Positions 1 through 63,532 of a DNA stretch of 64,000 nt are shown here, one piece after another. Origin of the DNA: Thermodesulfobacteriota bacterium (GTDB lineage Bacteria > Desulfobacterota > Desulfarculia > JACQYL01). A program made the position numbers and the translations under genes. Each line of letters opens with the position of its first letter. Position 1 is the stretch's first letter. Under the pieces are notes generated by a model, which ran no database searches, was not told the DNA's origin, and was given only the letters and a program-made list of their open reading frames with translations. Location: NCBI GenBank assembly GCA_963675595.2, contig CAXXLZ010000002.1, positions 128,001 through 192,000 of the forward strand, in the 5' to 3' direction.

Positions 1-13
1 GCGGATTCCCGAG

Positions 14-655
14 TTGCTCAAGGCCGTCCGAATCCTGAAGAAGGAACTCGGCGACGACGTGCCTATTGTCGGCGGGATCATCGGGCCTTTTACCATCACC
101 GGGTCCCTCATCGACACGGTTCCTTTGTTGAAGGCCACCTTCAAGACACCGGAAAAGATCCGCCCGTTCATGGAAGTGGCGGAAAAAGCGGGCACCGAAC
201 TGGCAAAAGCTCTTATCGACGCGGGAGCGGACATCATCGCGGTCGAGGATATGACCGCCTCTCCGGAGCTCATCGCTCCCCAGACCTACGGAGATTACGA
301 GGTCGAATACCAGAGCAGACAGTTCAAGGCCATCTCAGTGCCCAAGATTCTCCACATCTGTGGAAACGTGGACAAGATCGTGCACTGGATGGGCGAGACC
401 GGTCCGGATGTCCTCAGCCTCGAGCCTAAGGCAAGTGCCAAACTCGCCCGGGAAAAATGTGGACCGGATATGATTCTCATGGGAGGAGTGGACACGGCCA
501 CCACGCTGTTCATGGAATCGCCCGAGACGGTGAAAAAAGGGTGCGAAGCCTCCATCGCCGACGGAATCCAGATATTGGCTCCCGGATGCGCCGTGGCTCC
601 GGGAACGCCCCTTGATAACCTGTTGGCCATGGTGGAAGTGGCTCGGAGCCGTTAA
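14..655 (+). CDS. MtaA/MtbA/CmuA-family methylcobamide methyltransferase (URO-D fold), 5'-truncated by window edge
   Basis: GPFT, ILHICGN, GGVD and LAPGCAVAPGTP motifs; next to a RamA-like gene. Confidence 0.8.
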   Translation: MLKAVRILKKELGDDVPIVGGIIGPFTITGSLIDTVPLLKATFKTPEKIRPFMEVAEKAGTELAKALIDAGADIIAVEDMTASPELIAPQTYGDYEVEYQSRQFKAISVPKILHICGNVDKIVHWMGETGPDVLSLEPKASAKLAREKCGPDMILMGGVDTATTLFMESPETVKKGCEASIADGIQILAPGCAVAPGTPLDNLLAMVEVARSR

Positions 656-1137: not shown

Positions 1138-2820
1138 GTGATCATGACCCGCATCGGTATTGCGATAGACCTGGGAACCAGCGGCTTCAGAGGACAGGCC
1201 CTGGATTTGGACCGGACCGGCCGTGTGCTCTCCACGGCGGTAACCGCGAGACATCCCCTGCCCGGAGCCAACGTGATGGATCATCTTCATTGCGCTCTCG
1301 AACTTGGAGTCGAGTGGGCGCAACAGGTGATTGTTTTCTCCGTCAACCGAATAGTCGCCGCTCTCGGCATCGATCCCCAACACGTGGTTCGCTTGGCCGT
1401 GTGCGGGAACCCGATCCAGTTGTCGATCTTTCAAGGGATCGAAATCCGAGACCTGGCCTACGCGGGTAAACGAAAACTCGAGGCATTGGGCGTGGTTCCA
1501 CCGGATCGCGACGCCCGGAAGATCAAGGCACGGGAAATCCCGGGGCTGGCGCTTCCGGGTGAGGCGGAGGTGCTCATTCCTCCGGCGGTCCGACACGAGA
1601 TAGGCGCCGACGCTCTAGCCATGATGATTCGGACGGGCATGCTGGAGAAAGACGAAATCGCCATCGCCACGGATTACGGCACGAACGCCGAAATGGCCCT
1701 CGTGGTGAACGGCACGGTCTACACCGGTTCCACCGCCGCCGGGCCGGCCCTGGAAGGCCAACAGATCGAAGATGGATTGCTGGCCCTGCCCGGAGCGATC
1801 TGCGAGGCCTCCTATCTGCGCGGTAACGCAGCTCCAGGCACCCAAGACGACTGCGGTCGCTTCGGAGTCCGGGTTCTGGACGAAGAGATGACGGCTCGCA
1901 CGGGGAGTACGGTCGATCCCTGTTCGGGAGAAACCCTGGAGCGCGGAGACGTGTCGGCCGTGGGCATAACCGGCACCGGGGTCGTTGCGCTCATCAGTGA
2001 GGGCATCAAGAGCGGACTCATCCAACCTCCGAAAATCAAGACCCCCGACGCCGCGATCCATCTGGCGGACGGAGTGAAGTTCTCGGAGAAGGACCTTTTG
2101 GAGGCCGGAAAAGCCATCGGTTCCGTCCGCGCCGGCCATTTCACACTCTGTCAAGAGGCGGGCATCAACCTCGAAGATGTTGAGGCGGCCTACATGTCGG
2201 GAGCCTCCGGTACGTATGTCAATGCCCTCAAAGCCCAACATCTGGGCATGATCCCTCCTGCCGTGAAGAAGATATATCAGGTGGGCAACACCTCCCTGGC
2301 CATGGCCCGAGAGCTGGTCTTGGATGCGGATGCCCTCTGGAAGATGAAGGAGGTCGCCGACGCCCTCAGACAACACCACTGCATGTTCGCCGTTTCCAAG
2401 ACGTTCGAGAAGGTCTATGTGCTTGAATTGTCCGTTTGGTCCGACGGTCTGACCATTGAGCAATACCGGATGTTCCTCAAGAAGTACAAACTCCCCACCC
2501 TTCCGGAAATCTCCGGCTCGGCCGAGGTCGTGAAAACGGAGGAGAAAGATATCGCCGAAGTGGGGGAATTGGGCCTGACAATCCTTACCGACGCGGGCAT
2601 GAAAAGGACTCTCGTATTCAGTGGCTGTGCCGGGGATTCTCTCTGTGTGGCGGAATGTCCGGAAAATGCACTCCGCATCCACGAAGCGGGAGAGGAGTTC
2701 GCCGTCACCATCGATCTCGCCCTCTGCAACGGTATGGCTTGCCGGAGATGCGAAACGATCTGCAACGAGCGGGCCTTTGACTGGGTGCGTCTGATCACCA
2801 TCGGAACCGGCTCTGCGTAA
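1138..2820 (+). CDS. ramA: Methylamine methyltransferase corrinoid protein reductive activase (RamA/RACo, ASKHA ATPase with C-terminal ferredoxin)
   Basis: IDLGTSGFR, HPLPGANVMDHL, DYGTNAEMAL, AAGPALEGQ, C-terminal ECPENA...CNGMACRRC. Confidence 0.85.
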   Translation: MIMTRIGIAIDLGTSGFRGQALDLDRTGRVLSTAVTARHPLPGANVMDHLHCALELGVEWAQQVIVFSVNRIVAALGIDPQHVVRLAVCGNPIQLSIFQGIEIRDLAYAGKRKLEALGVVPPDRDARKIKAREIPGLALPGEAEVLIPPAVRHEIGADALAMMIRTGMLEKDEIAIATDYGTNAEMALVVNGTVYTGSTAAGPALEGQQIEDGLLALPGAICEASYLRGNAAPGTQDDCGRFGVRVLDEEMTARTGSTVDPCSGETLERGDVSAVGITGTGVVALISEGIKSGLIQPPKIKTPDAAIHLADGVKFSEKDLLEAGKAIGSVRAGHFTLCQEAGINLEDVEAAYMSGASGTYVNALKAQHLGMIPPAVKKIYQVGNTSLAMARELVLDADALWKMKEVADALRQHHCMFAVSKTFEKVYVLELSVWSDGLTIEQYRMFLKKYKLPTLPEISGSAEVVKTEEKDIAEVGELGLTILTDAGMKRTLVFSGCAGDSLCVAECPENALRIHEAGEEFAVTIDLALCNGMACRRCETICNERAFDWVRLITIGTGSA

Positions 2821-2835: not shown

Positions 2836-3468
2836 ATGATCCAAGAAACCATTATCAGAGCCCTGGTCGTCGCTTTGAAGCGTGTACGAGGCATCAGCGA
2901 GGTCTTGCCCTTGGACGATCAGGATCGTCTGCGTATCCAAGAAGTCGAGAACGAGGCTCAGGAACGTTCTCTCATGGGACTGGGCAAAGTAGTGAACGAC
3001 GGAGTCATCGAGGTTCTGAGTCGCCCCCTCGTTCTGGCGGCTCTTACAACGATGGAGTTCGACTGGGGGCTTCGTCCGAGTTTGGTGCTCAAGAAAGGCC
3101 CCGTCCTGGTGGGCGAGGAGGTTCGAGACCCCGACCGTTTGTCGGAGCTGGGCCGCAATGAAGACGCTTGGTTTATGCACGAGAATTTTGTAATCTACAA
3201 AAGCCGCATGTCCTTCCCGAGAGACCTGCTCACCAAGGACTGCTTCTTCGAGATTCCGTGGTATCCGGCGGAATGGGACGAACTCCAGGGCTTGGGATCG
3301 GGGGCGCCACCCATGATCTACGGCTTTGTGTCTCCCCCCGCGGATGCCTTTCTGAAGGAGAAATATTTCCCCACGGCTGAGGAAAAAGGAATGGGGACCA
3401 TCCTCATTGGAGTGGGCCTCCAACCCGGAGAAACCGACGGCAATCCCGCGTCGCCCGAAGCTGCGTAA
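2836..3468 (+). CDS. Hypothetical protein co-transcribed with ramA
   Basis: 210-aa ORF, GGAGG RBS, 15 nt after the ramA stop. Confidence 0.7.
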   Translation: MIQETIIRALVVALKRVRGISEVLPLDDQDRLRIQEVENEAQERSLMGLGKVVNDGVIEVLSRPLVLAALTTMEFDWGLRPSLVLKKGPVLVGEEVRDPDRLSELGRNEDAWFMHENFVIYKSRMSFPRDLLTKDCFFEIPWYPAEWDELQGLGSGAPPMIYGFVSPPADAFLKEKYFPTAEEKGMGTILIGVGLQPGETDGNPASPEAA

Positions 3469-15151: not shown

Positions 15152-15168
15152 GGTCTACCTTTATTATG

Positions 15169-16257
15169 GGGACGTTGTTGACTAACGTGACAAATTCAAT
15201 CTGCAGTCATTTATTCCTTTCAAATATCCTTGAGATGGCTGAAGTCGTTACGCCTAATTGCCGTGCCGTTTCGGCCATGGTAAGGCCGAGACTTTCGACC
15301 AGTTCTTTGGCCAATTGCGCCCTTAGCCCGGGAAGCACACCCCGGCGACTTCCCCCTCTTAACGCTTCAACGGAAACTCCGCCTTTTTCGCACGCAGCAA
15401 GAATGATCTTTCCCGCCTCGATTACCCGCTCATTGATTGATATCTGTGCACTGATATTCTTATCCGCTTCAGCAAGGATACGCTCTACAAATTCATCCTG
15501 TCCTAATATACGTTCATCGCAAAGAACCTTTTCTTTGCTTTTTCGCGAAGTCAAAACCTGCGACCAACCTCCCAAGGTCCGAATCAGCCCTCCCCCTCCA
15601 AGGTCTTCCCTATGGCCTTCATCTATTCCATCCTCCAAATATCGGCGGTAAACCTTCCGGGCCGTGGGAATATCCTGAGCGAACCAGGAAAGTACATAAT
15701 CGGTATCCTGCCATTTCGCTTTCCTCTTGCCCATGATCGCGCTGTGACCGCACCAGGGATAGCGATCAAGCTCGGACATATTTTTTACTATTTTGGCCCT
15801 TAATGGGTTCAAGTGTATGTATCTAACCAACTCCTGAAAATAAACATCTTCATCGCAGATGATGGATTTGTATCTGTTTTGAAAAACATGTCCATGTCTC
15901 TTATGACGGATATTATAGGTTACGGCATATCCGGTAAGAAGCCTTCTCATGAACCGAGATAGTCCTACAAGGCCGCTCTTGACGAGGATATGGATGTGAT
16001 TCGACATCAGAACCCAGGCATAAACACTGGTTCTCGTTTCCTCGGCAAGGTCCCCAAGGCGCGAAACCATATTCTCCCGATCATATTGATCGGTTACGAT
16101 ATCTCTCTTTTCCATCCCCCGGACAATAACATGATGCAGGGTACCCGGAGCATCTAATCTGGCCTGCCTGGGCATGACATCTTACCGCCTTGGTCTCATC
16201 TATTTCACCAACTCCAAAGCGACTACCTTGTTTTGTCACGTTAGTCAACAACGTCCC
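15169..16257. mobile_element. Y1-transposase element bounded by perfect 26-bp inverted repeats
   Basis: GGGACGTTGTTGACTAACGTGACAAA at 15169-15194 and its exact reverse complement at 16232-16257; visibly more AT-rich than its flanks. Confidence 0.8.
15207..16175 (-). CDS. REP-associated tyrosine transposase (RAYT)-like HUH Y1 transposase with C-terminal HTH
   Basis: MPRQAR...HHVIVRG, LMSNHIHIL (HUH), RYIHLNPLRA, C-terminal HTH. Confidence 0.9.
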   Translation of the reverse strand: MPRQARLDAPGTLHHVIVRGMEKRDIVTDQYDRENMVSRLGDLAEETRTSVYAWVLMSNHIHILVKSGLVGLSRFMRRLLTGYAVTYNIRHKRHGHVFQNRYKSIICDEDVYFQELVRYIHLNPLRAKIVKNMSELDRYPWCGHSAIMGKRKAKWQDTDYVLSWFAQDIPTARKVYRRYLEDGIDEGHREDLGGGGLIRTLGGWSQVLTSRKSKEKVLCDERILGQDEFVERILAEADKNISAQISINERVIEAGKIILAACEKGGVSVEALRGGSRRGVLPGLRAQLAKELVESLGLTMAETARQLGVTTSAISRIFERNK

Positions 16258-16263
16258 GTAACT

Positions 16264-17016
16264 TCATTCCCGATCCAAAGGCGAAAACAGCGCACTCTCG
16301 CGCAGGCCCCACCGATGAAGGCGATACGCCGCGGACACCCTCAGGACCCCCAGGCCGTAATCCACCGACTTGGCCAATCCGATGGAGGAGGAATCCGGGG
16401 CATAGCGCGTGGGACAGGACACTTCTCCGATTCGGTAGCCGGCGTAAATCACCTGGGCGAGGATTTGATTATCGAACAGGAACCCGTTGTCGTTGTCTTC
16501 CAGGGGCAGGCGTTCCAGCACTTCCCGGGCGAATGCCCGGTAACCCGTGTGGTACTCCGACAATTTCTGGCCCACCAGCAGATTCTGGACAAACGTCAGC
16601 ACACGGTTGAAGTAGTACTTGTAGAGGGGCATGCCACCCTCAAGGGCCTGTTTTCCCAGTATGCGGGATCCGAGCACGCAATGGTACACGCCTTGGGCGA
16701 CCAGAGACGCCATGCTGGGGATCAGCGCCGGCGTATACTGATAATCCGGATGCACCATGATGATCACATCGACGCCCAAGCGCAGCGCCTCGCGGTAGCA
16801 GGTCTTCTGGTTCCCCCCATAACCGGTATTTCGCGTGTGCCGGATGGGCGTCATGCCCAGCGACCGCGCGACTTCAAAGGTACGGTCCGTGCTTTGATCG
16901 TCCACCAGCACGATCTCGTCCACAATGTCCCTGGGAATTTCCGAAAACGTTTTCGCTACCGTAGCCTGAGCGTTGTACGCCGGCATGATCACGGCGATTC
17001 GCTTACCGTGCATCAT
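16264..17016 (-). CDS. Glycosyltransferase family 2 (DPM1-like)
   Basis: PAYN, VDDQSTDRT, GYGGNQK, HPDYQY, EYHTGYRAF. Confidence 0.9.
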   Translation of the reverse strand: MMHGKRIAVIMPAYNAQATVAKTFSEIPRDIVDEIVLVDDQSTDRTFEVARSLGMTPIRHTRNTGYGGNQKTCYREALRLGVDVIIMVHPDYQYTPALIPSMASLVAQGVYHCVLGSRILGKQALEGGMPLYKYYFNRVLTFVQNLLVGQKLSEYHTGYRAFAREVLERLPLEDNDNGFLFDNQILAQVIYAGYRIGEVSCPTRYAPDSSSIGLAKSVDYGLGVLRVSAAYRLHRWGLRESALFSPLDRE

Positions 17017-17424
17017 GAGATGTCTCTCTCCCTCTATTCGGCCTCCGACGAGTCGGCGGGGAAATACGTGAGTGCGCGATAATCAAGCACTCCCCACAGT
17101 TTCCGTCGCGACTGATCATGTGTTGCAGAAGCCCCGTGAGCCGGTTCTTTGTTCCACGTCGACGTTCGGTGTTACAGCAGCCGGCGCATCCGAGGCAAAC
17201 GGGTTTCTTGTCGGCGTCTTATCGCCGATTCCATTCAATCAATTGTGTCGGGAGGCATCGTGTTTGTTGGAGGCCGGAAAACACGTTCGGCACGGCCCCG
17301 TTCTCCGTCTCGATCACAGACGGAGACAACAGGGCCGACACCCTAAACTCGAAATGAGGTTGAGGGGAGCACGCACGGCTTCCCTCAACCTTTATTGAAC
17401 GACGATTACTTCTTGATCGGGTGA

Positions 17425-17778
17425 TTAGTAGCGGGGTCGACCGCCACCGCCGCCGCCTCGTCCGCCTCCGCCGCCTCCGCCGCCTCTCGGACCGCGTCCG
17501 CCGCCACCCCCGCCGTGCCCGCCTCGCGGGGCGTCGGTACGGGGCCGCGCTTCGTTCACGTTGAGAGCCCTACCCTTGACATCCTTACCGTTCAGGCCTT
17601 CGATCGCGGACCGGGCTTCGGCGTCGGAGGGCATTTCCACGAATCCGAATCCTTTAGACTGGCCGGTGTATTTGTCCTTAATGATGGTGGCTGATTCGAC
17701 CTGTCCGAATGACTCGAATGCGTTCCGCAAATCTTCTTCGGTGGCTTGGTACGACAAATTCCCTACGTAAATGTTCAT
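17425..17778 (-). CDS. RRM RNA-binding protein with Gly-rich tail
   Basis: IYVGNL (RNP2), KGFGFVEM (RNP1); hairpin at about 17357-17392 downstream. Confidence 0.95.
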   Translation of the reverse strand: MNIYVGNLSYQATEEDLRNAFESFGQVESATIIKDKYTGQSKGFGFVEMPSDAEARSAIEGLNGKDVKGRALNVNEARPRTDAPRGGHGGGGGGRGPRGGGGGGGGRGGGGGGRPRY

Positions 17779-18151
17779 TCCGATGCCCTTTGTCCTTTTG
17801 TAATGAGTTCCGCCCTGCTACCTAACGGGTCGTCCACGCGGTCCCGATTTGGAACCGGCGGGATCCTTCTTTCCCTCGAGCCCCAAAAACGCACTGTTTC
17901 CTTCCCGAGGTTCCCGGCCCCGTTGACGCCGGGAACAGACCAAGCCGCCATCTCGAGGCGAACTTACACGATCCATAGAGGCGAGTATAAGGCTTTTGGT
18001 CACACTTGGCAATTTCTCAGAGCAAGAATTCCGTTATTTAAACGAAGAAAAGATTCTTCCCCGAACAAGCAACGGAGTCTCGAAAAATCGTGGTGAATGC
18101 CGATTCGCCCAAGCCGTGCGACACTGCGCCGCAGAGCGAACCGCTCTCTGT

Positions 18152-32836: not shown

Positions 32837-33271
32837 CTACGCGTGTGAATTCGCCCAGTCTACAATGGCCTGTGCGGACAATGCCCCGGAAACCCTGGCC
32901 TTCTCCCTGCCGTTCTCGAAAAGGACCATGGTGGGAATGGACATGATTCCGTACTTTCCCCCAAGTCCCTGTTCCTCTTCCGTATTCACCTTGGCGAAAA
33001 GCACCCGAGTCCCCAACGTATGAGCCGCCTGCTCAAAAGCCGGCGCCATCATCTTGCAGGGTCCGCACCACGGAGCCCAGAAATCCACCAACACCGGCAG
33101 GTCGTTCCTGCCCACGTACTTGTCGAACCCGCCTTCTTTCAAAGCCACGGGTTTGCCTGTGACGATGCGGCCGTGACATTTACCGCAGGAGGGCCCTTCC
33201 GCGATTCTCTTCGACGGCAGCCGGTTTACCGCTCCACATTGAGCACAAACAACGTGAATCGACTGATCCAT
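32837..33271 (-). CDS. trxC: Thioredoxin 2 (Zn-finger thioredoxin)
   Basis: CAQC...CGKC plus WCGPC; AAGGAGG RBS. Confidence 0.92.
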   Translation of the reverse strand: MDQSIHVVCAQCGAVNRLPSKRIAEGPSCGKCHGRIVTGKPVALKEGGFDKYVGRNDLPVLVDFWAPWCGPCKMMAPAFEQAAHTLGTRVLFAKVNTEEEQGLGGKYGIMSIPTMVLFENGREKARVSGALSAQAIVDWANSHA

Positions 33272-33678
33272 GAAACCTCCTTTTTTCGGCGATGGAAACC
33301 CTGAAAGCAATCGTTACCCATAAGATACGTCCGGTCCTTCGCGATGCAAGACACCGGGACGGCTATTGCATGAGCCGGATCGTACCGGAATTCACGGCCA
33401 AGCCTGCCGCAACCGGGTTCCCTCTCCTGTTCCCGGACTCTTTGAGATTCTCATTCCCAGGGCACCGGAGGGAATAGCGTTCCCACGGCGACCCTATGAA
33501 TAAATACGCTAAGCCTGCGGGGTGAAAACCAAAGCCGACCCAGAGAAGGAAAGCGTACGGATCTCTTGACGAATGCGGAAGGGACGATAGGACGTGGGTT
33601 GTCGTGGGTTCAAGGAGAAAACGGGCAAAGGAAGCGTGCCTCGCTCTTAAGGGCCGCAAGGGCGTTGTCGGACCCGTA

Positions 33679-34566
33679 CTACACGTTCAGACGCGCTCCG
33701 TCCAGGTACATCAGGCTTCGGCCGACCCGTCGGATGTTGTGAAATCCTTCCTTCAACATCACGACCCGTTCCAAGCCGATGCCCAGTCCGGCCCAGGAAT
33801 CCGCGATGTTCCAATTGGCGTCCAGGGGATGCGGTCCCACGGCGCCCGACGCGATTTCCACCCCGTCCGCCAGGATGTCGGTGGTATCCCCGTAGACTTC
33901 GGATTTCTCCGTCTCCAGGCGGTAGGGGAGCCCGATGACTTCCATGATTCCGTGTGCCAACACCTCGAGTCGGGCCTGCGAATCCCCCTCCATGCCCATT
34001 TCCACCAAGTTCAGCATGGTGAACTCGGAAAGATGCCTGGAGCCTTTGGATTCCTTACGGAAACAACTGCCGATCTCGAACATGCGGACGGGAAACGACC
34101 AAGTCCTGGTCACATGCCCCATCAAATGATAAAGATTGGGAGCCAACATGGGACGAAGGCAGGTTTTTCGATCGATCCAATACACTTGTTCAAGCAAAGG
34201 GTGTCCCTCCCCGATGCCCATTTTCGTGAGCATTCCCCGGGCGAGCGTGGTGGGAGTACTCACTTCGACGAAGCCTTTCCCGGTGAGCCAAGCGACCAGA
34301 TTCCACTCCAGCACTCGGAGGGAGGGTCTGAGTTTTTCCTGCTGAAGCCGCGTCAATCTTTCCCGCGTGCTCTCGACCAACTCTCGCTCCAGCGTGCGAA
34401 AAGCCGCGTCCCGGTCTTTTTCCGAGGCATATTCGGATCGGGTGGCGGTTTCTTCTATATCCAACTCAATGAGTCGCTGCTTCTGCGTGGCGGTAAATTC
34501 CAAAGTCGATTCTTCTCCATGTGGGACGGTGGAAAGACATTGGCTGCCGTGGGTGGTCCGTTCCAT
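33679..34566 (-). CDS. pylSc: Pyrrolysine--tRNA ligase catalytic subunit PylSc (alternative TTG start at 34503)
   Basis: FTATQKQRLIEL, CLRPMLAPNLY, FEIGSCFRKES, EFTMLNLVEMG, YGDTTD, WAGLGIGLER, RSLMYLDG. Confidence 0.93.
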   Translation of the reverse strand: MERTTHGSQCLSTVPHGEESTLEFTATQKQRLIELDIEETATRSEYASEKDRDAAFRTLERELVESTRERLTRLQQEKLRPSLRVLEWNLVAWLTGKGFVEVSTPTTLARGMLTKMGIGEGHPLLEQVYWIDRKTCLRPMLAPNLYHLMGHVTRTWSFPVRMFEIGSCFRKESKGSRHLSEFTMLNLVEMGMEGDSQARLEVLAHGIMEVIGLPYRLETEKSEVYGDTTDILADGVEIASGAVGPHPLDANWNIADSWAGLGIGLERVVMLKEGFHNIRRVGRSLMYLDGARLNV

Positions 34567-34650
34567 GCCACTCCTGAGCAGGAAACGACAAGCCGGCGAA
34601 TCATTGGAGGGAACTCCGATCCGGCAGCCCGTCGAAAAACGATGAGCTGC

Positions 34651-36831
34651 TTAAAAACGCTCCTCCAAATCCACCATGACCGTGGTGGCTCCCTCATGGT
34701 GGCGAACCTCACCGGCCAATTCCCGCTCGACCAGATCGTGACCTCGCTCCTCCCACCAGGCTTGCGCGTCCTTACGAGTCCAGGACCCCGCGTCACGGCA
34801 GCTCGACAACCGATCCTTCAGCTCTTCCGTGTTCTGCGGACGCTTGTCCGGGTCTTTCTCCAGACAGGCCATCACCAAGTCTTCCAGGTCTTCGGACAGC
34901 GGGCGGCCCAGCTTTTCGGAAGGCCGTTGCGGCGGATCATGGACCTGTTTCCGACAAATCTCAATGGAGTCCCCGCCCTCGAAAACGTCCCTGCCCGCCA
35001 ACAAAAAATAGGCCACCGCGCCCAAGGAGTAAAGATCGCTGCGCCCGTCGATCTCCCCCGGAGTGACGATGGCTTCCGGTGCTAGGTACTTGGGCGTGCC
35101 GGCGGCGAATTTGGGTCCCGGGCCCGGAGTCTTGATCGCGAACTTCACCAGGCCGAAATCGCACACTTTGACCATGTCGAAGTCACCGCCCCGCTCATAG
35201 ATGATGATGTTCTCCGGTTTGATGTCCCGATGAATCATGCCCGTTGCATGGGCCTCGTTCAGCGACGCGCAAACCTGGAGGACGATGTGGATGACCCGGC
35301 CTTCCGGCAGGGGTCCGCAGGCCTCCACCAGGGTGTGAAGATTGACGCCGGGCAGGTACTCCATCACGTAATAGAACACCCCTTCGGGGGTGCGGCCATA
35401 GTCGAAAATTCGAATGGTGTTCAGATGCGTGAGCTGGCTCGTGAGCTGAACTTCACGCTCAAACCTTGTGATGGCCTCCTCGTTGGTCCGCTCAGGTCGC
35501 AACAGCTTGATGGCACAGGGTCTCCTCAACATGGCGTGTCGGGCTTTCCACACGGCCCCCGCCCCCCCCACTCCGAGCTTCCGTTCGAGGGTATACTGAC
35601 CCAGCTTTTCGGCCCGCTTCTCGGCGTGGAGCATACGCCTGCGCTGAGAAGAAATGATCCGGGTGGCGAGCACGGTGGACACGGCGGTGAGCAACAGCAA
35701 TCCGAAGAGAATACCGAACGTATACCGCAGAAGCATCAAGGGCCGGAAGGCCTCTTCCGCATCCTCTTCCGTGGCCACACCGAAGCCGTATTCGGGCAAC
35801 CAGGTCCATGCCCCGAGGACCGGCACGCCGCGATAGTCGCGGTACCCCTCGACATCCACACCGCTTTTCCCTTGCGCGACCTCCGCGGCCATTTTGGTCA
35901 GGGGCTGCTGGTCCCGCGGGATGGGTTTGAACCCCTCGACCATGTTGCCGCGCGGATTCTTGATGACCACGTTGAGGATGGCCTGCACGTGGGGCTTGTC
36001 GGGAAGCAGTCCGATGCGCTTGAGATGTTCGTCGAACCGACTCTGGGAGATCATCAACCCGTGCGCGTCCAAAGCGTAGGTTTCCCCGCTCTTGCCGGGG
36101 CGGGCCACACTCAGAATTCCGGTAAATTCACGGCTGGGCCGGATTCTCAAACCAAGCACCGCCGCGACTCCGCCCCCTCCGTCTCGCACCGGGGTCGCCG
36201 CGAACATGGTAGGCGCGTGAGGATGCATGACGCCGTGATCATCCGCCAGCGGCAGCGGCGAGCGATAAGGTCGACTGACCACCGTCTTTCCCGCCAAGGC
36301 CCGTTTCACGAAATCGGAAGCGTCGTAGGCGGTCTTCAAGCCGAGATACCGATCGTCCAGAGCCCCCACATTCACGCCCTGGGGATCGATGACCAGAAAA
36401 TCCACATATCCCTGGGCCCTGCACAAGGGTCCCAAGACCCCTCGGATTCTTTCCAGCGCATTGGAGCCCGCGCTTCCAAATACCGGGCGATTGCTCGGAC
36501 TTCCGTAGCGGACGAGCTCCAGGATGTTCCTGCGGACCTCCGGTTCGGCGGCCACGGACTCCACGGTGCTCTCCTGCTTTTCCAGCCAGATCTTCAGCGC
36601 GGTGACGTCCGCATTCAAAATGGTTTCCAGCTTGGAGGCCAGCACGTCCTTCATGGCCCGCTCCACCGTGGCGTGACTCAAATACCCCACTACCGCCAGA
36701 ATCACGGTCATGGCCACGGGAAAGACCCACCGCATCATGGACGGCACGGCTGCGGGCTCAGGGGCGCTGTAGCGCACCACTACCTTGGATTCGGTTCGAT
36801 TCGCGTCGGTTGTTCGGTCTTCATCGGTCAC
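34651..36831 (-). CDS. Membrane Hanks-type Ser/Thr kinase with extracytoplasmic Cache-like sensor
   Basis: Two TM helices flank the sensor (YRDYRGVPVLG); GVGGAG, AIK, HRDIKPEN, DFG, GTPKYLAPE. Confidence 0.9.
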   Translation of the reverse strand: MTDEDRTTDANRTESKVVVRYSAPEPAAVPSMMRWVFPVAMTVILAVVGYLSHATVERAMKDVLASKLETILNADVTALKIWLEKQESTVESVAAEPEVRRNILELVRYGSPSNRPVFGSAGSNALERIRGVLGPLCRAQGYVDFLVIDPQGVNVGALDDRYLGLKTAYDASDFVKRALAGKTVVSRPYRSPLPLADDHGVMHPHAPTMFAATPVRDGGGGVAAVLGLRIRPSREFTGILSVARPGKSGETYALDAHGLMISQSRFDEHLKRIGLLPDKPHVQAILNVVIKNPRGNMVEGFKPIPRDQQPLTKMAAEVAQGKSGVDVEGYRDYRGVPVLGAWTWLPEYGFGVATEEDAEEAFRPLMLLRYTFGILFGLLLLTAVSTVLATRIISSQRRRMLHAEKRAEKLGQYTLERKLGVGGAGAVWKARHAMLRRPCAIKLLRPERTNEEAITRFEREVQLTSQLTHLNTIRIFDYGRTPEGVFYYVMEYLPGVNLHTLVEACGPLPEGRVIHIVLQVCASLNEAHATGMIHRDIKPENIIIYERGGDFDMVKVCDFGLVKFAIKTPGPGPKFAAGTPKYLAPEAIVTPGEIDGRSDLYSLGAVAYFLLAGRDVFEGGDSIEICRKQVHDPPQRPSEKLGRPLSEDLEDLVMACLEKDPDKRPQNTEELKDRLSSCRDAGSWTRKDAQAWWEERGHDLVERELAGEVRHHEGATTVMVDLEERF

Positions 36832-37077
36832 GGCTTCTCATCCCTTTTGAAGCGCCGGCGACTTCGGTTGCCCAACGATTTGGCCTGTCGGGGATTCCGG
36901 TTTCGGCAGACCACCGGACTTGAGGAGATCCCGGGAACGCGCTCGGCAGGATCCGGGACGCTGCTTTTCGAGCTTTACGAGTGCATAGGTTTAAAGTCTA
37001 ACCGAGGCCGACCGTTGCCATCAAGAACAACCGTTCGATCCCCTCGTTCAAGTAAATGCGCGTGACCACCATGCCGA

Positions 37078-39142: not shown

Positions 39143-39424
39143 TCACTTTCGCTTCAACAGGTCCAGCTCCACCTTGAGCTCCCCGATCTGTCGGTATAAC
39201 TCGGCTCGGAGTTCCTCGGACTCCTTCGCCGAACTCTTATTCTTCTTCATGAAAAGCTGAGGAAGCTCGGACAAGAGACGATTCTTCCACTGCCGTACCT
39301 GATTCGGATGAATCCGGTACTCTTCAGCCAGTTGGCTCGCCGTTTTGGCCCCTCTAACGGCTTCCAAGGCCACTCTCGCCTTGAATTTCGCCTCGTAGGT
39401 CTTCCGAGTGCGACCGGAGTCCAT
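39143..39424 (-). CDS. Solo IS3-family OrfA-like HTH protein
   Basis: FKARVALEAVRG...IHPNQVRQWK...LYRQIGELKVE; AAAGGAG RBS; no OrfB. Confidence 0.75.
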   Translation of the reverse strand: MDSGRTRKTYEAKFKARVALEAVRGAKTASQLAEEYRIHPNQVRQWKNRLLSELPQLFMKKNKSSAKESEELRAELYRQIGELKVELDLLKRK

Positions 39425-39500
39425 CGGTCTCCTTTCGTCCGGTTTCTCCGATCCGTGTAACCGGAGAATTGCCTGGGAAACAAAGTGCCAAAAGGTGAAT

Positions 39501-39515
39501 TCAAGTCTCGTGCCA
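39501..39515 (-). promoter_or_regulatory. Putative sigma-54 (-24/-12) promoter
   Basis: Minus strand TGGCAC-GAGAC-TTGA, 76 nt upstream of ATG 39424. Confidence 0.5.
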
Positions 39516-39989
39516 ACCCGTCGCCTTGCGCACAACACAAAAGCAAATAGTGGAACTTATTAGATAATATTCCCCGGCATCGAGCGTCTCACATGCCTCG
39601 ATGCCGACCGAAAGAACTACGATGATGTAGGGGAGTTGAGTGGTGGACAACCTCGCACGCCTTCCCGGGAAACCGAGCCCACCGGCAGCCTCTCTCTACC
39701 GGAAGGGTGGAACCATCCCCCCATGGATGTTTCAACGGGCCGGGGAAGAAGAATTGTCCTACGGGTTTCGCACCCAAGCGGTATGGGACCCGACAAAAAA
39801 ACAAAATCATACCTGTGGGTAGGATTACGACACACGACCTACCCGAAGGTCGGGCTGGAAAAGAATGAAGAACAGGCTTGACGGAAGTAGGAGCACTGGA
39901 ACGAAAGAGACGATGAGGCGCGTTTCGAGGTTACTGCAAAGCTTGGAGGAACACTGCGGAAACCCGCACCGAGCCGGGAGCCGGTTCCC

Positions 39990-42864: not shown

Positions 42865-44888
<2,024 letters not shown>

Positions 44889-51225: not shown

Positions 51226-51611
51226 TCCCGAGCGCCGTCCCCTGCTTTGTCCCGCATGAAAGCCGACGCAAGCATTGACGTGGGAGGACTTTCGAGAAAG
51301 TCCTCCCACGCGCCCCCTTTCAAAGCCCTTTGGGCGAGCCTCACCGCCGCCGGCGGGGAGGCCCGGTTAAAACGTTTGGAAGGGGGCGCACGGGGGGGAA
51401 CTTTTTTAAAAGTTCCCCCCGTGAATAATTACGATGAATGTACGGAAGGGAATCGGTATGGGGTTCCCCCATTTACGGCATTCCACCGCCACTTTCATCA
51501 CTCCCAAGACACGAAAAGTGCAAAAATTTGGCAAAAAAGTGCAAGCAATTTGCGGGGAGGGGGGCTATAGGTGAACTCCATATTTCGCCACATTTGCATT
51601 CAATCATTTTT

Positions 51612-51724
51612 GAGACAAAGCCACACCCCGGGTGACCGGGGGCCGGAAAGCCACGGGTCCTGAGGACACGGGATAAGAAGTCGAATCGATTCTCTCCCGA
51701 ATCCGGACAGCCGGGTTGCCGCAT
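51612..51724 (+). ncRNA. c-di-GMP-I (GEMM-I) riboswitch
   Basis: P2 CCCGG-GTGA-CCGGG with GNRA loop, GGAAAGCC junction, GGGTCC...GGACAGCCGGGTTGCCG; overlapping hairpin 51707-51744. Confidence 0.8.
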
Positions 51725-52203
51725 GACGCATGCGACCCGGCTGTTTGCATTTCGGGTCCGATGAAAACGCACAGGGTTTCAGCTTGGGGAAGGAGGTGCC
51801 CTGGAAACGGATACCTTTAGTGCATAAAAGAGAAGGCCCGCATGCCTCCGCCAAGACGCTCTGCGGGCCTTCGAGGGACGCGCCGACGCCGACGGCGGGC
51901 ACGCAGTCCGCTTCCCGGCGGAAGCGAAGTATCTCATTTTAGCCCCCCCTGCCGTTGGCGTCAACCCGGCCGGAGATCACTCTCCTCGCTTCTTCTCCCT
52001 GCGTCCCAGTGACGAAACATGACGCGCAACGCCGCAGGTCGCGTTTTCCGGCGGCCTGCCGGCGTGATCATGCGGTGATCGTGTTCGGAAACTCCCACCG
52101 CGCGGCGAACGCCCTGCCGCGGCGGGAAGAAAGTGGAAACGACGGTTCATCAACCAACAGATCCGGAGCTGTACGCAACCCAACAACAGGGGAGGGAAAA
52201 AAG

Positions 52204-52890
52204 ATGAAAAGCACGAAGATTCTCAAGATTTCGGTTCTGATGATGCTATGGGTCGCCGCGCTCGCCTGGCCGGTCTCGTCGGCTCAGGCCACGCCCTATT
52301 ACTTCACGGGTGCAAACGGCGCGAGCGCCTGGATTGAGGTGGATGCCTGGGCGGGCACCGGAGCAAACGAAACGATTCTGGTCGTGGACTGGAACATCTA
52401 TTCAGGTCCCTACCAAACCGAAGCGCACGCGTTCGGCTTCCGCTGGGACGGCACGGCGTACGAATCGGATCTGCTCAACGCATTGAACGATGCCGGCGTA
52501 TTCACCGTGACCTCCAGCTATGGTGGGGCGTTCCTCGATGATATCGTCTACGACGACGGTGTCGATCTCCATACGCACGCCGACGAACCGGGAAGCTGGA
52601 ATCTCGCAAGTACCGACGATCCCTACGCCCAATGGGGCACCTGGGGGGATGGAAACGGGCTGGGTGACTGGTACCCCAATACCGCCGGCTTTAACGCCGA
52701 GTTGCTCGCAGATGGTCAGCTCGAGGGCATCAACGCGATTGCGTGGTTCAGCGGGGACCCCAACGCGTATTACCTGGATGTTCCTTATTCCGCCCCCGTA
52801 CCCGTTCCGCCGTCACTCATCTTGATGCTCAGCGGCCTCATGGGCACGGGTGGGCTTAGGTTTATACTCCGCAGACGACGATTAAGCTAG
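52204..52890 (+). CDS. PEP-CTERM/VPLPA-CTERM exosortase substrate
   Basis: Signal peptide; C-terminal PVPVPPS, TM segment and RRRR; GGAGG RBS. Confidence 0.85.
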   Translation: MKSTKILKISVLMMLWVAALAWPVSSAQATPYYFTGANGASAWIEVDAWAGTGANETILVVDWNIYSGPYQTEAHAFGFRWDGTAYESDLLNALNDAGVFTVTSSYGGAFLDDIVYDDGVDLHTHADEPGSWNLASTDDPYAQWGTWGDGNGLGDWYPNTAGFNAELLADGQLEGINAIAWFSGDPNAYYLDVPYSAPVPVPPSLILMLSGLMGTGGLRFILRRRRLS

Positions 52891-53966: not shown

Positions 53967-55963
53967 GGTGTCCTTCCGAGTGCCCGTAAGATAGAAGCCG
54001 TTATCCTCCACGGGATGAGACGCCCCCTCCCCTTTCCACATCATCAGCCCGTCAACCAACGCCTCCCGGGATCGCCGAGCCCCAGCTCGGCAAACCCTAT
54101 TCCATCCATCCGCCAAACCTTCAGGGCCGCTCGTCCTTGTTCAATCGTTCCTATTCACACAGTCGCCGGGAGGACGCCGGCAATGGGGTCACAGCGGAAA
54201 AGGTGGGCCTTCGGCCGTCTCTCGGGCAGGCACTATGGCCTGCCCCTACAATAGACGAGTTCCCCCCCTGAAGGATTGCTTTCAAAGAGCAACCTCCCGA
54301 CCTCTCATGGGTCAATCAACAACGACTCAATTCACAACCCCCTGAACGCCTACCATCCCCTCCTTCCACATCATCAGACCGTCGCCCAACGCCCCCCCTG
54401 GGATCGCCGAGCCCCAGCTCGGCAAACCCTATTCCATCCATCCGCCAAACAGCCAGAGTCGCTCACGCTTGTTCCATCTGATGCGGAGCGGACCCTACTG
54501 GTTGGCTGCGCGATTGTCTGCGGAGCTTGGTGCCGAGCCGGCATTCGGCGCTCCCAGGACAAACCCAACCACGCTATGTACGCGCAAGGGACGGAACGAA
54601 CCCTCGCTCACCTGCGATGAGATGCTGAAAAGGCCCAAGGACGCCGGCTGGATATAGGGTGTCCTTCCGAGTGCCCGTAAGATAGAAGCCGTTATCCTCC
54701 ACGGGACGGGACGCCCCCTCCCCTTTCCACATCATCAGCCCGTCAACCAACGCCCCCCGGGATCGCCGAGCCCCAGCTCGGCAAACCCTATTCCATCCAT
54801 CCGCCAAACAGCCAGAGTCGCTCACGCTTGTTCCGTCTGATGCGGAGCGGACCCTACCGGTTGGCTGCGCGATTGTCTGCGGAGCTTGGTGCCGAGCTGG
54901 GGCTCGGCGCTCCCAGGACAAACCCAACCACGCTATGTACGCGCAAGGAACGGAACGAACCCTCGCTCACCTATGATGAGATGCTGAAAAGGCCCAAGGA
55001 CGCCGGCCGGATATAGGGTGTCCTTCCGAGTGCCCGTAAGAGAAGAGCCGTTATCCTTCACGGGACGGGACGCCCCCGCTCCTCCCACATCATCAGCCCG
55101 CCGCCAAACGCCCCCCGGGATCGCCGAGCCCCAGCTCGGCAAACCCTATTCCATCCATCCGTCAAACAGCCAGAGTCGCTCACGCTTGTTCCGTCTGATG
55201 CGGAGCGGGCCTTACCGGTTGGCTGCGCGATTGTCTGCGGAGCTTGGTGCCGAGCTGGGGCTCGGCGCTCCCAGGACAAACCCAACCACGCTATGTACGC
55301 GCAAGGAACGGAACGAACCCTCGCTCACCTGCGATGAGATACTGAAAAGGCCCAAGGACGCCGGCTGGATATAGGGTGTCCTTCCGAGTGCCCGTAAGAG
55401 AAGAGCCGTTATCCTACACGGGATAAGACGCCCCCTCCCCTTTCCACATCATCAGCCCGCCGCCAAACGCCCCCCGGGATCGCCGAGCCCCAGCTCGGCA
55501 AACCCTATTTCATCCATCCGCCAAACCTTCAGGGCCGCTCACGCTTGTTCAATCTGATGCGGAGCGGACCCTACTACTGGTTGGCTGCGCGATTGTCTGC
55601 GGAGCTTGGTGCCGAGCCGGCATTCGGCGCTCCCAGGACAAACCCAACCACGCTATGAGCGTGCAAGGGAAGGGACGAACAGTTGGTTGCGAGGAATGGC
55701 GGTAGACATACCGTGAAGCCTACCGATGGATAATGCTTTTTCGGAGATCAGTCGAATAGGAAATTTGGGCGGGCCACACCGCCTCCGGCGGAGAGGCTCT
55801 CGGCGGCAAGACATCTCAGGGCTCTGAAGCCTTCCGACCCGGCCCGCTGCCACAGGAGAAGAACCCGAGACGCCCTTCACGGGATGAGACGCCCCTCCCC
55901 TTTCCACATCATCACCCCGTCGCCGAACGGCCCCCCTGGGATCGCCGAGCCCCAGCTCGGCAA
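53905..55963. repeat. Tandem ~359-bp repeat array with inverted REP pairs
   Basis: Anchor AT(G/A)CTGAAAAGGCCCAAGG at 53931, 54622, 54981, 55339; units carry GGATCGCCGAGCCCCAGCTCGGCA and an inverted copy. Confidence 0.9.
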
Positions 55964-57045: not shown

Positions 57046-58595
57046 CTAGAGTTTAGAGCCATGCGGGGCAGCCAAGTTTGTATAGAAGAGCATAGTTCTC
57101 CAAGACGGGTTGAATACCGTTGACGTAAGGCTTTGAGATGATTGACTGAACACGGATATCAGGCAGCGCGCCCCAAGTCTTCCGGAGAATCGGTGAATTC
57201 CGGTTGGAATTTTTTGGATTTCCGGTTCCACATGGCTCGCACGTTTAAGTTGCCGAAAAGACGACCGATGGCTGCGGCCATCCAGCCGGCGGTGGCGGGC
57301 CTGTTCTTTCTCCAAGGGATTGGAAACATCGTATAGGCCGCGTTGGGACCCAGGCAGAGCGCCAAGAGCCGTGGCAAGCCGTAGGCCAGGCACAAGATCA
57401 TGCTCCATCGAGCCAATGTCTGCCGTGTCTGCTGCCAAGCATTTTTCAGTCCGAACAGGTGCTTGATCTCGTTGAACATGGGCTCGGTCCACCATCGTCG
57501 TGCATAGCGTGTAATCACTTCCGCGCCGTCCATGTCGGGATCGGTACTGATCAGAAGATGCCAATCGGACCAAGAGGGGTTGTCGGACATAAACCGGCAC
57601 CACACGATCTTGCACAACCGGCCGTCCAGGAAGCGGACTTTGGCTTTGGTTTGGTAGAACTGGAAAACTCGTTCCGAGCCGTAGGCAAAGAGGGTTTTCT
57701 CCACCGGACGACAGAATCGTCCGATGTTTTCCAACGTGAGTTTTTCCCCATACTTTCTGGGTCTGCCCCGTTTCTTCCGAGGCGGATTGTCCGGAGGCAA
57801 AAACAGGGCGGTATCTTTGCGGACTTGGCCGATGACCGTCACACCATCGCGAATCAGGGGAACCACCAGGGAGCTTTTCATATACCAGGCATCGAGCAGC
57901 AGAATAATGAGAAAGCGATCCGGCAGCCAAGTCATGAGAACGGACATCAAGAGCCGCGCCGCGTCCAGTTTGGTGGTGTTCCCTTTTTTGCGGATGAGCC
58001 GAAACAAGAGGGGAAACGCGGCTACCCGGCCCTTGTGGCGGCAGATGACAGCCAGAGAAACCCGAAGCTGTCCCCACAGGAATTTGGGGCGGTTGGGCCG
58101 GTGCGCGTGATCGTAATGCCAACCGGCGCAGGGAGCTTTCTTGGACGATCTGGGCAAAGGGAAGTCGTCTATGGCGAACTCGATGGATCGGTTTGGAATC
58201 CGTTTCAGGATCAGGCGCATCCATTGCCGGGCTAGCGCAAGCCATTGGAATCGGCCCTTTTCGATGGCCTTGTAATAGGCGGTCCAGGACAACTGGGGCC
58301 GAACGGCCAGAAGCGCGGAAGAAATATGGCCGCCGCGGCAGACCATACATCCCATCAGGAGTTCCAGAAGAGTCGGAGCTATTCTGCACGGAACGGCCTG
58401 AAATAGAAAGGAAATCCACTGCGATAGGAGCATAAGTGCTTGAGCCGTCGAATCCATTGGTTGACCCCCAAGGAAAGGTTTCTTTCCTTAAAGGGCCGCC
58501 AAAGGCGGCCGCGCATCCGCGCGGCAATGTCAAGTACTTTGTTGTCTTTATTCGCATTTTTCCTATACCAAGGGTCGCCAGACTCTAAACTCTAG
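57046..58595 (-). mobile_element. Insertion sequence (1550 bp), IS4/IS701-like
   Basis: 13-bp TIR CTAGAGTTTAGAG; 8-bp direct repeat TTGTTGAA at 57038-57045 and 58596-58603. Confidence 0.9.
57159..58457 (-). CDS. DDE transposase (IS701/IS4-like)
   Basis: AIDD, LLDAWY, YARRWWTEPMFNEIK. Confidence 0.9.
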   Translation of the reverse strand: MDSTAQALMLLSQWISFLFQAVPCRIAPTLLELLMGCMVCRGGHISSALLAVRPQLSWTAYYKAIEKGRFQWLALARQWMRLILKRIPNRSIEFAIDDFPLPRSSKKAPCAGWHYDHAHRPNRPKFLWGQLRVSLAVICRHKGRVAAFPLLFRLIRKKGNTTKLDAARLLMSVLMTWLPDRFLIILLLDAWYMKSSLVVPLIRDGVTVIGQVRKDTALFLPPDNPPRKKRGRPRKYGEKLTLENIGRFCRPVEKTLFAYGSERVFQFYQTKAKVRFLDGRLCKIVWCRFMSDNPSWSDWHLLISTDPDMDGAEVITRYARRWWTEPMFNEIKHLFGLKNAWQQTRQTLARWSMILCLAYGLPRLLALCLGPNAAYTMFPIPWRKNRPATAGWMAAAIGRLFGNLNVRAMWNRKSKKFQPEFTDSPEDLGRAA

Positions 58596-62700: not shown

Positions 62701-63532
62701 AGATGTCATGCTCTCAAGAGAAGATGGGATTTACGTTGTTATCCAAATTCTGAAAATGAGGTTTCACGATCCAGATACTGGAACTAACGGTCATTCAACA
62801 AAGTTGATTTCAGTAGCTCACAAAGTCCTTTCTACGTGGTCATTCTTTCGAGAACACAGAAAATACGGCAAGGATGATCACGGCTTAGCTCAATTGTCCA
62901 AGAATACCCTTGATTTTGATTATGATGAGTATATTACAAAGAAGCTATGTCACAATTTCATTAAAGCTTTTCTTACATGGAATGTTCATGCTCACGATTA
63001 TCCAGAATTGCTATCCGTTATTGCCGCCAAGCGGCCAGTCGTTTTTTTGGATATATTTATAGAAGAATATGATATCGGATACGAATTCCATAGAAGGCTG
63101 TCATACGGTGTATCTAATATCCATGAAAATCCGCTTAATCACATTCCGGATTCTACTATCATCTCCTGGTGCAAATCTGATCCGGAATGTCGATATTGTT
63201 TGATAGTAACGTCGTTACAGCTCTTCATAGCGTCGGATGAAACTGCAGAATTGAAGTGGCGACCTATTTTCTTCCTCCTTCTATCAAAAGCGCCTGACTT
63301 AGGCGCTGTTCTCAGCTCTCTTGATGCAACCATTACTCCGCTCTCTTGGTCCGGTTCTCTAGCGGATGTTCTTCAGAAGCGTCTCGTCCTGTTCGAGTCT
63401 TTGTACGAGCATGATGATGCTAAGGTCAGGACTTGGGCAAAAGCACAGTACCTGGCCCTTCAGCAAAAGATCGAAGTAGCACGAGAAGGAGAGGATCGTC
63501 GTAATCGTGCCGATGATTTGACTTTTGAATAA
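59702..63532 (+). CDS. Large PD-(D/E)xK-like nuclease plus STAND-type P-loop NTPase
   Basis: DGGLD...FQVK at the N-terminus; Walker A GLSGVGKT; Walker B LIVDNC; SGGNAR; long C-terminal region. Confidence 0.7.
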   Translation: MVHILDITGDDIALLDDTDLRTLIGLLCEADYRSAGLPTKDIIWGGHQDAPDGGLDVVVKGTILPPPNSSIPRSETGFQVKKSDMPKRKIIDEMKPKGVFRDDIRNLADKNGAYIIVSSNGSTTSKALKSRIDAMKEAVRGELNEEDIFLDFYDRGRIATWIRSHPSLVLWVRGKIGKSLFGWHPYENWANPPGGTNEEYLLDEEMRLDERPRSKDGEMSIKDGLERLRKTLSNPGSSVRLTGLSGVGKTRLVQALFDDRVGQNALNPSQAIYTDTADSPSPAPLAFAESIKAEKKRAILIVDNCPPDLHRRLTKTCYTSDVSILTVEYDIREDIPEETRVFILKPSSEKVIEQLIRNRFTQISHVNARTIGEFSGGNARVAIALAHTVERGETLSGFSDEDLFERLFRQRHDSNTDLLVSAEACSLVYSFEGTDVDSEASEILLLASLIGKSAAELYRDVAKLGERGLIQSRGQWRALLPHAIANWLAKRALKAIPKQTITQSILGSGSERLIKSFTRRLSYLDGCEPAVEIANDWLSEHGWIGEANCNFSDFGMEVFKNLAPVSPEKALELIERAAKLDHKGNLLSRENAHFYDFVLLLRHIAYDQELFDRSVRLILPFAISENPDEKYYSTRNVLKSLFSIYLSGTRASIESRASIIEKLVGSDDSDSQEIGLFLLDATLETYHFISAYEFEFGARSRDFGYVPRTNKEVMGWYQLFIGICTRLALSGRSIAQRARKILCIHFRGLWTNAGMFRVLEEEVARIHQQQPLNECWAPIKETLKYDGGRLEKDSLAALNRLEKLLRPSSLIERARTFALSSRYDIFCVADDSSDSPSRSQSLNQTGQNIREIGTEVAQDMDTLELLLPELVSKYAPGLHSFGLGLADGCQSKKELWQKLVSQLRKTPRENRVFNVFMGFLASCAETDPEFCNATLDAMITDDLMSDYFPILQTAVPIDKEAVERLRKALDYGRAKPETFGHIAQVQRHKSICDDDLADLLDVMLSREDGIYVVIQILKMRFHDPDTGTNGHSTKLISVAHKVLSTWSFFREHRKYGKDDHGLAQLSKNTLDFDYDEYITKKLCHNFIKAFLTWNVHAHDYPELLSVIAAKRPVVFLDIFIEEYDIGYEFHRRLSYGVSNIHENPLNHIPDSTIISWCKSDPECRYCLIVTSLQLFIASDETAELKWRPIFFLLLSKAPDLGAVLSSLDATITPLSWSGSLADVLQKRLVLFESLYEHDDAKVRTWAKAQYLALQQKIEVAREGEDRRNRADDLTFE

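Follow-up and report, generated by a model that had tools for sequence, protein, structure and literature searches.

We found that pylSc, the gene encoding the catalytic subunit of pyrrolysyl-tRNA synthetase (PylRS), is intact and lies on its own in the 64,000-nucleotide stretch of Thermodesulfobacteriota DNA analysed here (hereafter, the window), unaccompanied by pylT, pylSn, pylB, pylC or pylD. In our opinion, with a probability of roughly 0.55, it is a displaced member of a dispersed pyl system and encodes a class S enzyme adapted to the host. According to this reading, the protein would be the active catalytic subunit of a class II PylRS belonging to the split bacterial type (sN group, class S), coming from a Thermincola-like subclade whose operon runs pylT-pylSn-pylSc-pylB-pylC-pylD. 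The PylSc homodimer would activate pyrrolysine by adenylation and load it onto a tRNA-Pyl with a CUA anticodon and predicted U8 and U73, while a separately encoded PylSn would bind this tRNA in trans, and the system would serve the amber read-through of methylamine methyltransferases. The gene would have moved from its operon into housekeeping DNA, leaving its partners elsewhere on the chromosome; a candidate place for them is the DNA adjoining the window on its left, on the far side of an mtaA-ramA-hyp module found at this edge. The coordinates of the relevant features are collected in the table.

Table. Features of the pylSc region, of the left edge of the window and of a comparable stand-alone locus.
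Feature	Position	Strand	Remarks
pylSc	33679..34503	(-)	PylRS catalytic subunit; probable start TTG 34503, 274 aa; stop TAG
Spacer upstream of pylSc	34504..34650	(-)	147 bp; GGAG ribosome-binding-like site; kinase stop on far side
Cache-domain membrane Ser/Thr kinase	34651..36831	(-)	upstream neighbour of pylSc, same strand
trxC	32837..33271/33310	(-)	NF008229, 140.7 bits (cutoff 125); 407 bp downstream of pylSc
Imperfect inverted repeat, 21 bp	33404-33424 / 34607-34627		17/21 matches; flanks pylSc; weaker copy near 36889-36909
MtaA/MtbA-family methylcobamide methyltransferase, 3' part	<1..655	(+)	truncated by window edge
RamA, methylamine methyltransferase corrinoid reductive activase	1138..2820	(+)	TIGR04270, 738 bits (cutoff 500)
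Hypothetical protein (hyp)	2836..3468	(+)	no match in NCBIfam and Pfam
Stand-alone pylSc of related locus L074	9941-10834		Ca. Aminicenantes chromosome; 10 kb flanks

The identity of the gene is well supported. The open reading frame (33679-34566, minus strand) is intact, counts 295 amino acids from its first ATG and terminates with TAG. The initial annotation had described an intact PylSc with the motifs FTMLNLV, YGDT and WAG; we located all of them (residues 182-188, 225-228 and 258-260, respectively), and the protein scores 297.2 bits against TIGR02367 (PylS_Cterm), above the cutoff of 178.15. The start of that annotation, ATG 34566, probably has to be revised. The true start is probably TTG 34503, because relatives of this protein are about 276 residues long and begin at the matching position, a GGAG is located 11 nt 5' of this TTG, and residues 1-17 are unstructured (pLDDT below 50) in an AlphaFold2 model built on a 69-sequence alignment, whose mean pLDDT is 86.2. 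Starting at ATG 34566 would add 21 residues that show no conservation. The closest PDB sequences are those of Desulfitobacterium hafniense PylSc (3dsq/2zni; E 2e-80, 273 bits), and further matches are ISO4-G1 (228 bits), M. alvus (206) and M. mazei (185). In agreement with these data, a Foldseek search with the model returned 2zni as the top match (TM 0.78-0.82, 48% identity), and the top matches listed were all PylRS. The modelled structure comprises the PylRS fold with tRNA-binding domain 1 at its N-terminus, and the protein carries no fused N-terminal domain, as the upstream frames gave no PylSn match by HMM.

The predicted binding pocket is formed by M116, L141, A142, L145, Y146, M149, N186, V188, M190, Y225, A242 and W258, the equivalents of M. 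mazei positions 276, 301, 302, 305, 306, 309, 346, 348, 350, 384, 401 and 417; this mapping uses the PDB alignment together with what we take to be the M. mazei motif numbering. The same 12-residue pattern, M L A L Y M N V M Y A W, is listed for M. alvus, Bilophila wadsworthia and Desulfospira joergensenii (PMC9630628, File S1). By sequence, the pocket is thus canonical at 12/12 positions, the pattern being one that occurs in natural PylRS, and the enzyme would be expected to charge tRNA-Pyl with pyrrolysine. Like the protein studied here, D. hafniense PylSc (2ZNI/3DSQ) consists of PylSc alone and comprises tRNA-binding domain 1, the class II motifs and a C-terminal tail. In contrast, our enzyme has a larger pocket (M149 in place of W139, V188 in place of T) and G150 where D. 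hafniense has R140, its tRNA is predicted to be of the U8/U73 instead of the G8/G73 type, and pylT, pylBCD and pylSn are not near its gene.

The placement of pylSc between a kinase gene and trxC and the lack of a tRNA-Pyl and of pylB, pylC, pylD and pylSn in the window had both been reported initially, and both are borne out, the former by domain matches of the NCBIfam/Pfam type and the latter by ARAGORN, a covariance model and profile HMMs. Neither pylT nor pylSn nor pylBCD adjoins pylSc, as they would in a canonical cluster. ARAGORN found only a tRNA-Cys in the window; the same tool detects tRNA-Pyl in 64 of the 80 related loci retained as the best of 586. A search with nhmmer and 64 tRNA-Pyl genes gave a best window match of E 0.37, and the top window match of a tRNA-Pyl covariance model (38 genes, filters off) was again the tRNA-Cys, with 25.7 bits; as a control, this model gives scores of 48-93 bits to seven pylT genes from 16 loci that had been held out. 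Profiles for PylSn (55 sequences; this protein corresponds to TIGR03912, PMC3941956), PylB, PylC, PylD, the corrinoid protein, MttB, MtbB and MtmB, all built from related loci, yielded nothing above 4.1 bits in the six frames of the window. The spacer upstream of pylSc is shorter than the pylT-pylSn unit that occupies this place in relatives, and remnants of pylSn or pylB were not detected in the pylSc flanks. A decayed pylSn in the 5' extension or the spacer was considered and rejected (no HMM score exceeded -2.5; of 12 nucleotide comparisons, 11 stayed at shuffle level and that with L006 reached an uncorrected p of 0.015). A hidden pylT was rejected as well: two flank stretches resemble the 3' half of tRNA-Pyl by eye, but neither nhmmer nor the covariance model (filters off) reports a match at these places. 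Folding of the two spacers beside pylSc is unremarkable (z -0.02 and -1.36), and five matches to an anticodon-loop motif are at chance level.

The flanks do not point to mobility either. None of 144 random region pairs matched as well as the 17/21 repeat that flanks pylSc, a count obtained for a length and regions picked after seeing the match; moreover, this repeat is one of 65 inverted repeats in 4.8 kb, and an intergenic blastn search did not report it. It is either chance or a short intergenic repeat, and its significance is doubtful. A mobile cassette was rejected, since no target-site duplication (by eye) and no transposase were found near pylSc. PylS was likewise not found among 72,556 plasmids and 50,697 phages at E 1e-20.

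Phylogenetic analyses link the enzyme to bacterial operons that include pylSn. In a FastTree of 198 sequences and in quick IQ-TREE trees of 40 and 44 chosen rows, calculated with no bootstrap, it groups with loci L001-L006 (FastTree support 0.914; SH-aLRT 96 and 95), which belong to Thermincola-like Bacillota MAGs and one Thermodesulfovibrionales MAG (L006). The proteins P0020, P0007, P0003 and P0034 also fall within this clade, the last of them a deltaproteobacterial-named member (Deferrisomatales). All six loci have the order pylT-pylSn-pylSc-pylB, with pylD in 6/6 and pylC in 5/6; they keep pylSc inside the operon, whereas ours stands alone. Identity amounts to 58-64% with L001-L006, 52% with the ΔN locus L059 of Methanomassiliicoccus and 50-52% with the G73-type enzymes of Desulfobacterota. 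The motif 2 loop, RKESKGSRHLSEF, is identical to that of L003 and L004, and more distant members of the Thermincola-like subclade come from Halanaerobiales, Thermoleophilia and Ca. Hydrothermarchaeum. The subclade comprises about 60 of the 120 homologues listed for the enzyme, those with at least 57% identity. Judging from these sequences, it clusters with the PylSn-bearing bacterial enzymes (sN group, class S); the primary paper on class S is said to be Beattie 2023. A forced grouping with the Desulfobacterota G73-type PylSc of L021 and L046 was rejected (AU p 0.0018), and the host is probably a member of Desulfobacterota whose pyl type differs from the one in the sampled loci of this group.

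The clade also points to a particular tRNA. The discriminator base U73, a CysRS/GlyRS element, is present in 16 of the 71 loci with pylT among the best 80 of 586 (L001-L006, that is, all six sisters, and L008, L013, L016, L022, L026, L029, L063, L066, L068 and L072); one G73 call, L041, is doubtful. U8 accompanies U73 in all 16 of these tRNAs, and the residue aligned with D. hafniense R140 is G or S in the corresponding enzymes; across 70 loci, R or K occupies this place in 26 of the 31 enzymes whose tRNAs have G8. These associations come from related sequences and are not independent events. In D. hafniense, R140 stacks on G8 (PMC11467909). The enzyme of the window has G150 at this position and shares it, together with S180, K174 and R84, with the sister enzymes, whose loci have U73 in 6/6 cases. 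On these grounds, its cognate tRNA-Pyl is predicted to have U8 and U73. In 2022, U73 (pylTU) was reported in three species, one of them Halarsenatibacter silvermanii, and biochemical data did not exist at that time (PMC9630628); our 16 of 71 loci far exceed these three species, and the tRNA tree figures of that paper may bear on the count. A later biochemical test of U73 systems was not found in the literature searched, which covered few subscription journals. In Ca. Methanohalarchaeum HMET1, a G73/A73 discriminator change together with a motif 2 loop of reduced length result in mutual orthogonality (PMC9071458). The relatives of our enzyme resemble the pylTU systems and HMET1 in using a discriminator other than G73; however, the motif 2 loop of the A73-specific HMET1 PylRS2 is one residue shorter, whereas ours has a normal length and aligns with G73-type enzymes with no gap. 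Discriminators also differ within a single genus, Natroniella acetigena having G73 and N. sulfidigena U73. In a separate observation on L006 (6486-7655), the TAG of pylSn is in frame with pylSc, four codons before the pylSc ATG, an arrangement that is not in frame in L005. Amber read-through with pyrrolysine could possibly generate a PylSn-PylSc fusion in L006, that is, a pyrrolysine-dependent switch between split and fused forms.

How rare is an isolated pylSc? A scan of GTDB genomes for related PylSc returned 598 stretches, and the best 80 of 586 loci were retained. Among these 80, pylT is present in 71, pylSn in 68, pylB in 67, pylC in 69 and pylD in 70, counts in which divergent copies of PylC and PylD may escape the thresholds. 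Forty-one of them have at least 5 kb on both sides of pylSc; 30 of these are complete, 36 carry pylSn, and one of the five that do not is the archaeal ΔN locus L059. All five partners are missing in a single case, L074, both among these 41 loci and among the 32 with flanks of at least 9 kb; L062 and L071 have no partner either, yet their sequence stops within 500 bp downstream. The pylSc of L074 adjoins an mttB homologue whose readable part contains no in-frame TAG, and L047, the sister of L074, holds a full pyl cluster. With this precedent, the isolation of pylSc is rare but not unique. Three other loci with long flanks, L030, L041 and L077, are partly split and have no pylSn within 10 kb.

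Published gene orders also leave room for a displaced gene. The initial annotation took pylTScBCDSn as the normal bacterial arrangement; it is indeed a known order, but pylSnScBCD is a second one and clusters can be interrupted (PMC3941956). The distance between pylB and the pyl cluster in M. alvus is about 0.7 Mb (PMC3941956). We found no account of a dispersed or incomplete pyl system of this kind in the literature searched, in which few subscription journals were covered. Three options had initially been offered for the gene, and a dispersed pyl system is the best supported of them: besides the clade and the intact gene, it draws on these published split clusters and on L074, alone where its sister L047 has a full cluster. 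Against a dispersed system stand the lack of any partner in the 64 kb window and the rarity of full isolation, and its remaining members would have to be sought outside the window.

A possible location is suggested by the left edge of the window, where we found an mtaA-ramA-hyp module that had been overlooked initially. It lies 31 kb from pylSc on the same replicon. In L007, ramA and then hyp (16665-17897) directly follow pylD, and the corresponding window proteins are 62% (RamA) and 48% (hyp, over 187 aa) identical; in L005, mtaA and a ram gene come after pylD. With these arrangements, the DNA to the left of the window becomes a candidate place for the pyl partners, and the module is possibly the tail of a methylamine/pyl island extending to the left. 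The MtaA of the window shares 42-46% identity with those six MtaA proteins from pyl loci that score best. On the other hand, RamA relatives are abundant, with 2849 of 8000 scored candidates at E≤1e-100, those with names being deltaproteobacterial or from Desulfobacterales, and MtaA-corrinoid-Ram clusters have been described in a paper whose main text is silent on pyrrolysine (PMC10418091); hence, the module need not mark a pyl island. RamA of the TIGR04270 type occurs in only 2 of the best 80 of 586 pyl loci. Pyrrolysine-using marine deltaproteobacteria encode ramA and lack MtbA (PMC8318568).

If the partners are not elsewhere on the chromosome, pylSc could be a stranded relic or the product of a partial acquisition, in which the remainder of the pyl system either disappeared or was never acquired, so that the enzyme would have no cognate tRNA and would be idle, drifting or in a side role. 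This explanation survives best among the rivals and is nevertheless unlikely. It would account for flanks with neither partner nor remnant, for the housekeeping neighbours and for the spacer upstream of pylSc, in which no sigma-70-like promoter was found. The state of the gene argues against it. Among the 87 columns conserved at 90% or more in 198 PylSc, the protein differs in one, and 46 of the 67 other clade members differ in as many or more; within its own 68-member clade it departs at 5 of 129 columns, as much as or less than 16 of the 67 other members. Its root-to-tip length falls short of the clade median, the GC3 of the gene (0.71) is within the range of 27 other window genes (0.65-0.77), and the same protein, one substitution apart, is present in a second assembly. 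The intact frame, the normal conservation and branch length and the host-like GC3 indicate a long residence under purifying selection. Altogether, these sequence features fit a long-resident, maintained gene, although a very recent loss of the partners, the only form of relic that would match, fits them too. Pseudogenisation was rejected, as conserved columns, branch length and GC3 show no decay.

Signs of pyrrolysine use in the window were also sought. No TAG-interrupted methyltransferase was found in the 64 kb with HMMs in six frames, and no convincing read-through frame of a TAG-recoded gene was seen by eye in the 49-60 kb region and in the six TAG-ending genes. TAG stops are not depleted in the window (6 of 37 genes). 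Both the missing interrupted methyltransferase and these stops count against the dispersed pyl system that we favour. Reading through the TAG of pylSc itself would append 22 residues following the pyrrolysine. The idea that this amber stop serves autoregulation was rejected: TAG ends 22 of 80 related pylSc genes, as compared with 11 of 73 pylC, 11 of 75 pylB and 14 of 69 pylD genes, a slightly higher proportion in raw counts.

It is also doubtful, and next in order, that pylSc is a second, horizontally acquired paralog, the host having a usual Desulfobacterota G73 cluster elsewhere and this U73-type copy as an extra. In a variant of this explanation, drawn by analogy with the G73/A73 systems of HMET1, the enzyme may form a second, mutually orthogonal pair. 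An apparent mismatch between enzyme and host speaks for this second of the initial options: the grouping with L021 and L046 fails the AU test as noted above, whereas the named relatives of the window HisG (76-80% identity) and those of RamA point to Thermodesulfobacteriota/Desulfobacterales or unplaced deltaproteobacteria. Orthogonality based on the discriminator also has a precedent (PMC9071458). Yet no second pylSc was seen in the window, and the presence of P0034 from Deferrisomatales in the clade implies that the U73 type may be the only system of this host. Moreover, the motif 2 loop has not been shortened as in HMET1 PylRS2, and a second pair requires a second pylT, none of which lies beside pylSc.

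A natural ΔN bacterial PylRS, with pylT and pylBCD elsewhere, pylSn lost and PylSc working alone, is quite improbable. We know of no sequence signature of PylSn independence. Nothing positive speaks for the PylSn-independent bacterial enzyme that was initially proposed, and pylSn is directly upstream in 6/6 of the nearest genomic relatives among the best 80 of 586 loci. The notion that such independence is mainly archaeal has to be softened, because pylSn was undetected in 11 of 81 bacterial genomes (PMC9630628) and bacterial PylSc of class S-delta, which does without PylSn, has already been used for amber suppression in E. coli (PMC11467909). These reports are in line with a ΔN enzyme, as are the lack of pylSn within 64 kb and the 52% identity to the Methanomassiliicoccus enzyme. 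Since S-delta enzymes work alone in E. coli, however, PylSn-free activity in that host would not be enough to establish an enzyme as naturally ΔN. With respect to the PylRS classes, the trees give a clade shared with the PylSn-bearing L001-L006, but the AU tests, in which L059 and P0362 were the only ΔN rows, leave a forced grouping with ΔN enzymes unrejected, at p 0.444 with one sequence on a long branch and at p 0.122 (ΔlnL 24.2) with two. The ML trees do not place the enzyme with the archaeal ΔN enzymes; identity is higher to the PylSn-bearing loci, and pylSn is present in 68 of the best 80 of 586 loci and in 36 of the 41 with long flanks. Archaeal ΔPylSn enzymes (classes A/B; M. alvus, ISO4-G1, Methanomassiliicoccus) resemble ours in having no adjacent PylSn, and that of M. 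alvus has the same 12 pocket residues; on the other hand, our enzyme is only 39-44% identical to the class A structures and is not their sister in the ML trees. In addition, the ΔPylSn group is defined by the genome-wide absence of pylSn, whereas the absence observed here extends over the 64 kb window. A review links PylSn independence to tRNA structure (PMC9499178, section 8).

The displaced class S enzyme that we favour would represent a modest case of operon break-up, and it carries a warning, namely that the lack of pylSn nearby is not the same as PylSn independence. The more useful result is a clade whose sampled tRNAs are all U73/U8 and whose enzymes have lost the G8-stacking arginine to match. 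Given the discriminator-based orthogonality of HMET1 and the 2022 statement on U73 systems (PMC9630628), this clade, including the present enzyme, is a candidate set for orthogonal pairs. We hold it unlikely, though not far-fetched, that the gene encodes a stand-alone PylRS reading a U73/U8 tRNA-Pyl, either PylSn-free or as an orthogonal second pair beside a G73 cluster. If true, such an enzyme would match, on the bacterial side, features that have been demonstrated in archaea so far, with U73 as a new axis of orthogonality and a roomy pocket like that of M. alvus. The finding would gain much interest if the genome lacked pylSn or held a second G73 system.

Several features of the window are unrelated to pylSc. 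Mobile elements comprise a group II intron with an intact reverse transcriptase/maturase (42865-44861), an IS701 (57159-58457), an IS3-like fragment (39143-39538) and a REP-associated-type tyrosine transposase, below the NF047646 cutoff, within a perfect 26-bp inverted repeat (15152-16263). A tandem array of 359-bp units (54364-55680; 3.7 copies, 93% matches) has further partial copies nearby and is preceded by a short ORF (from 53715) that resembles a ribbon-helix-helix antitoxin by eye. At 51611-52890, a c-di-GMP-I-GGC riboswitch (59.6 bits, gathering threshold 59) lies upstream of an ORF with a C-terminus that looks PEP-CTERM-like by eye. Finally, a 1276-aa ORF in a region of atypical composition (59702-63532) has no NCBIfam/Pfam match and, by eye, a P-loop-like motif; it may encode a defence ATPase.
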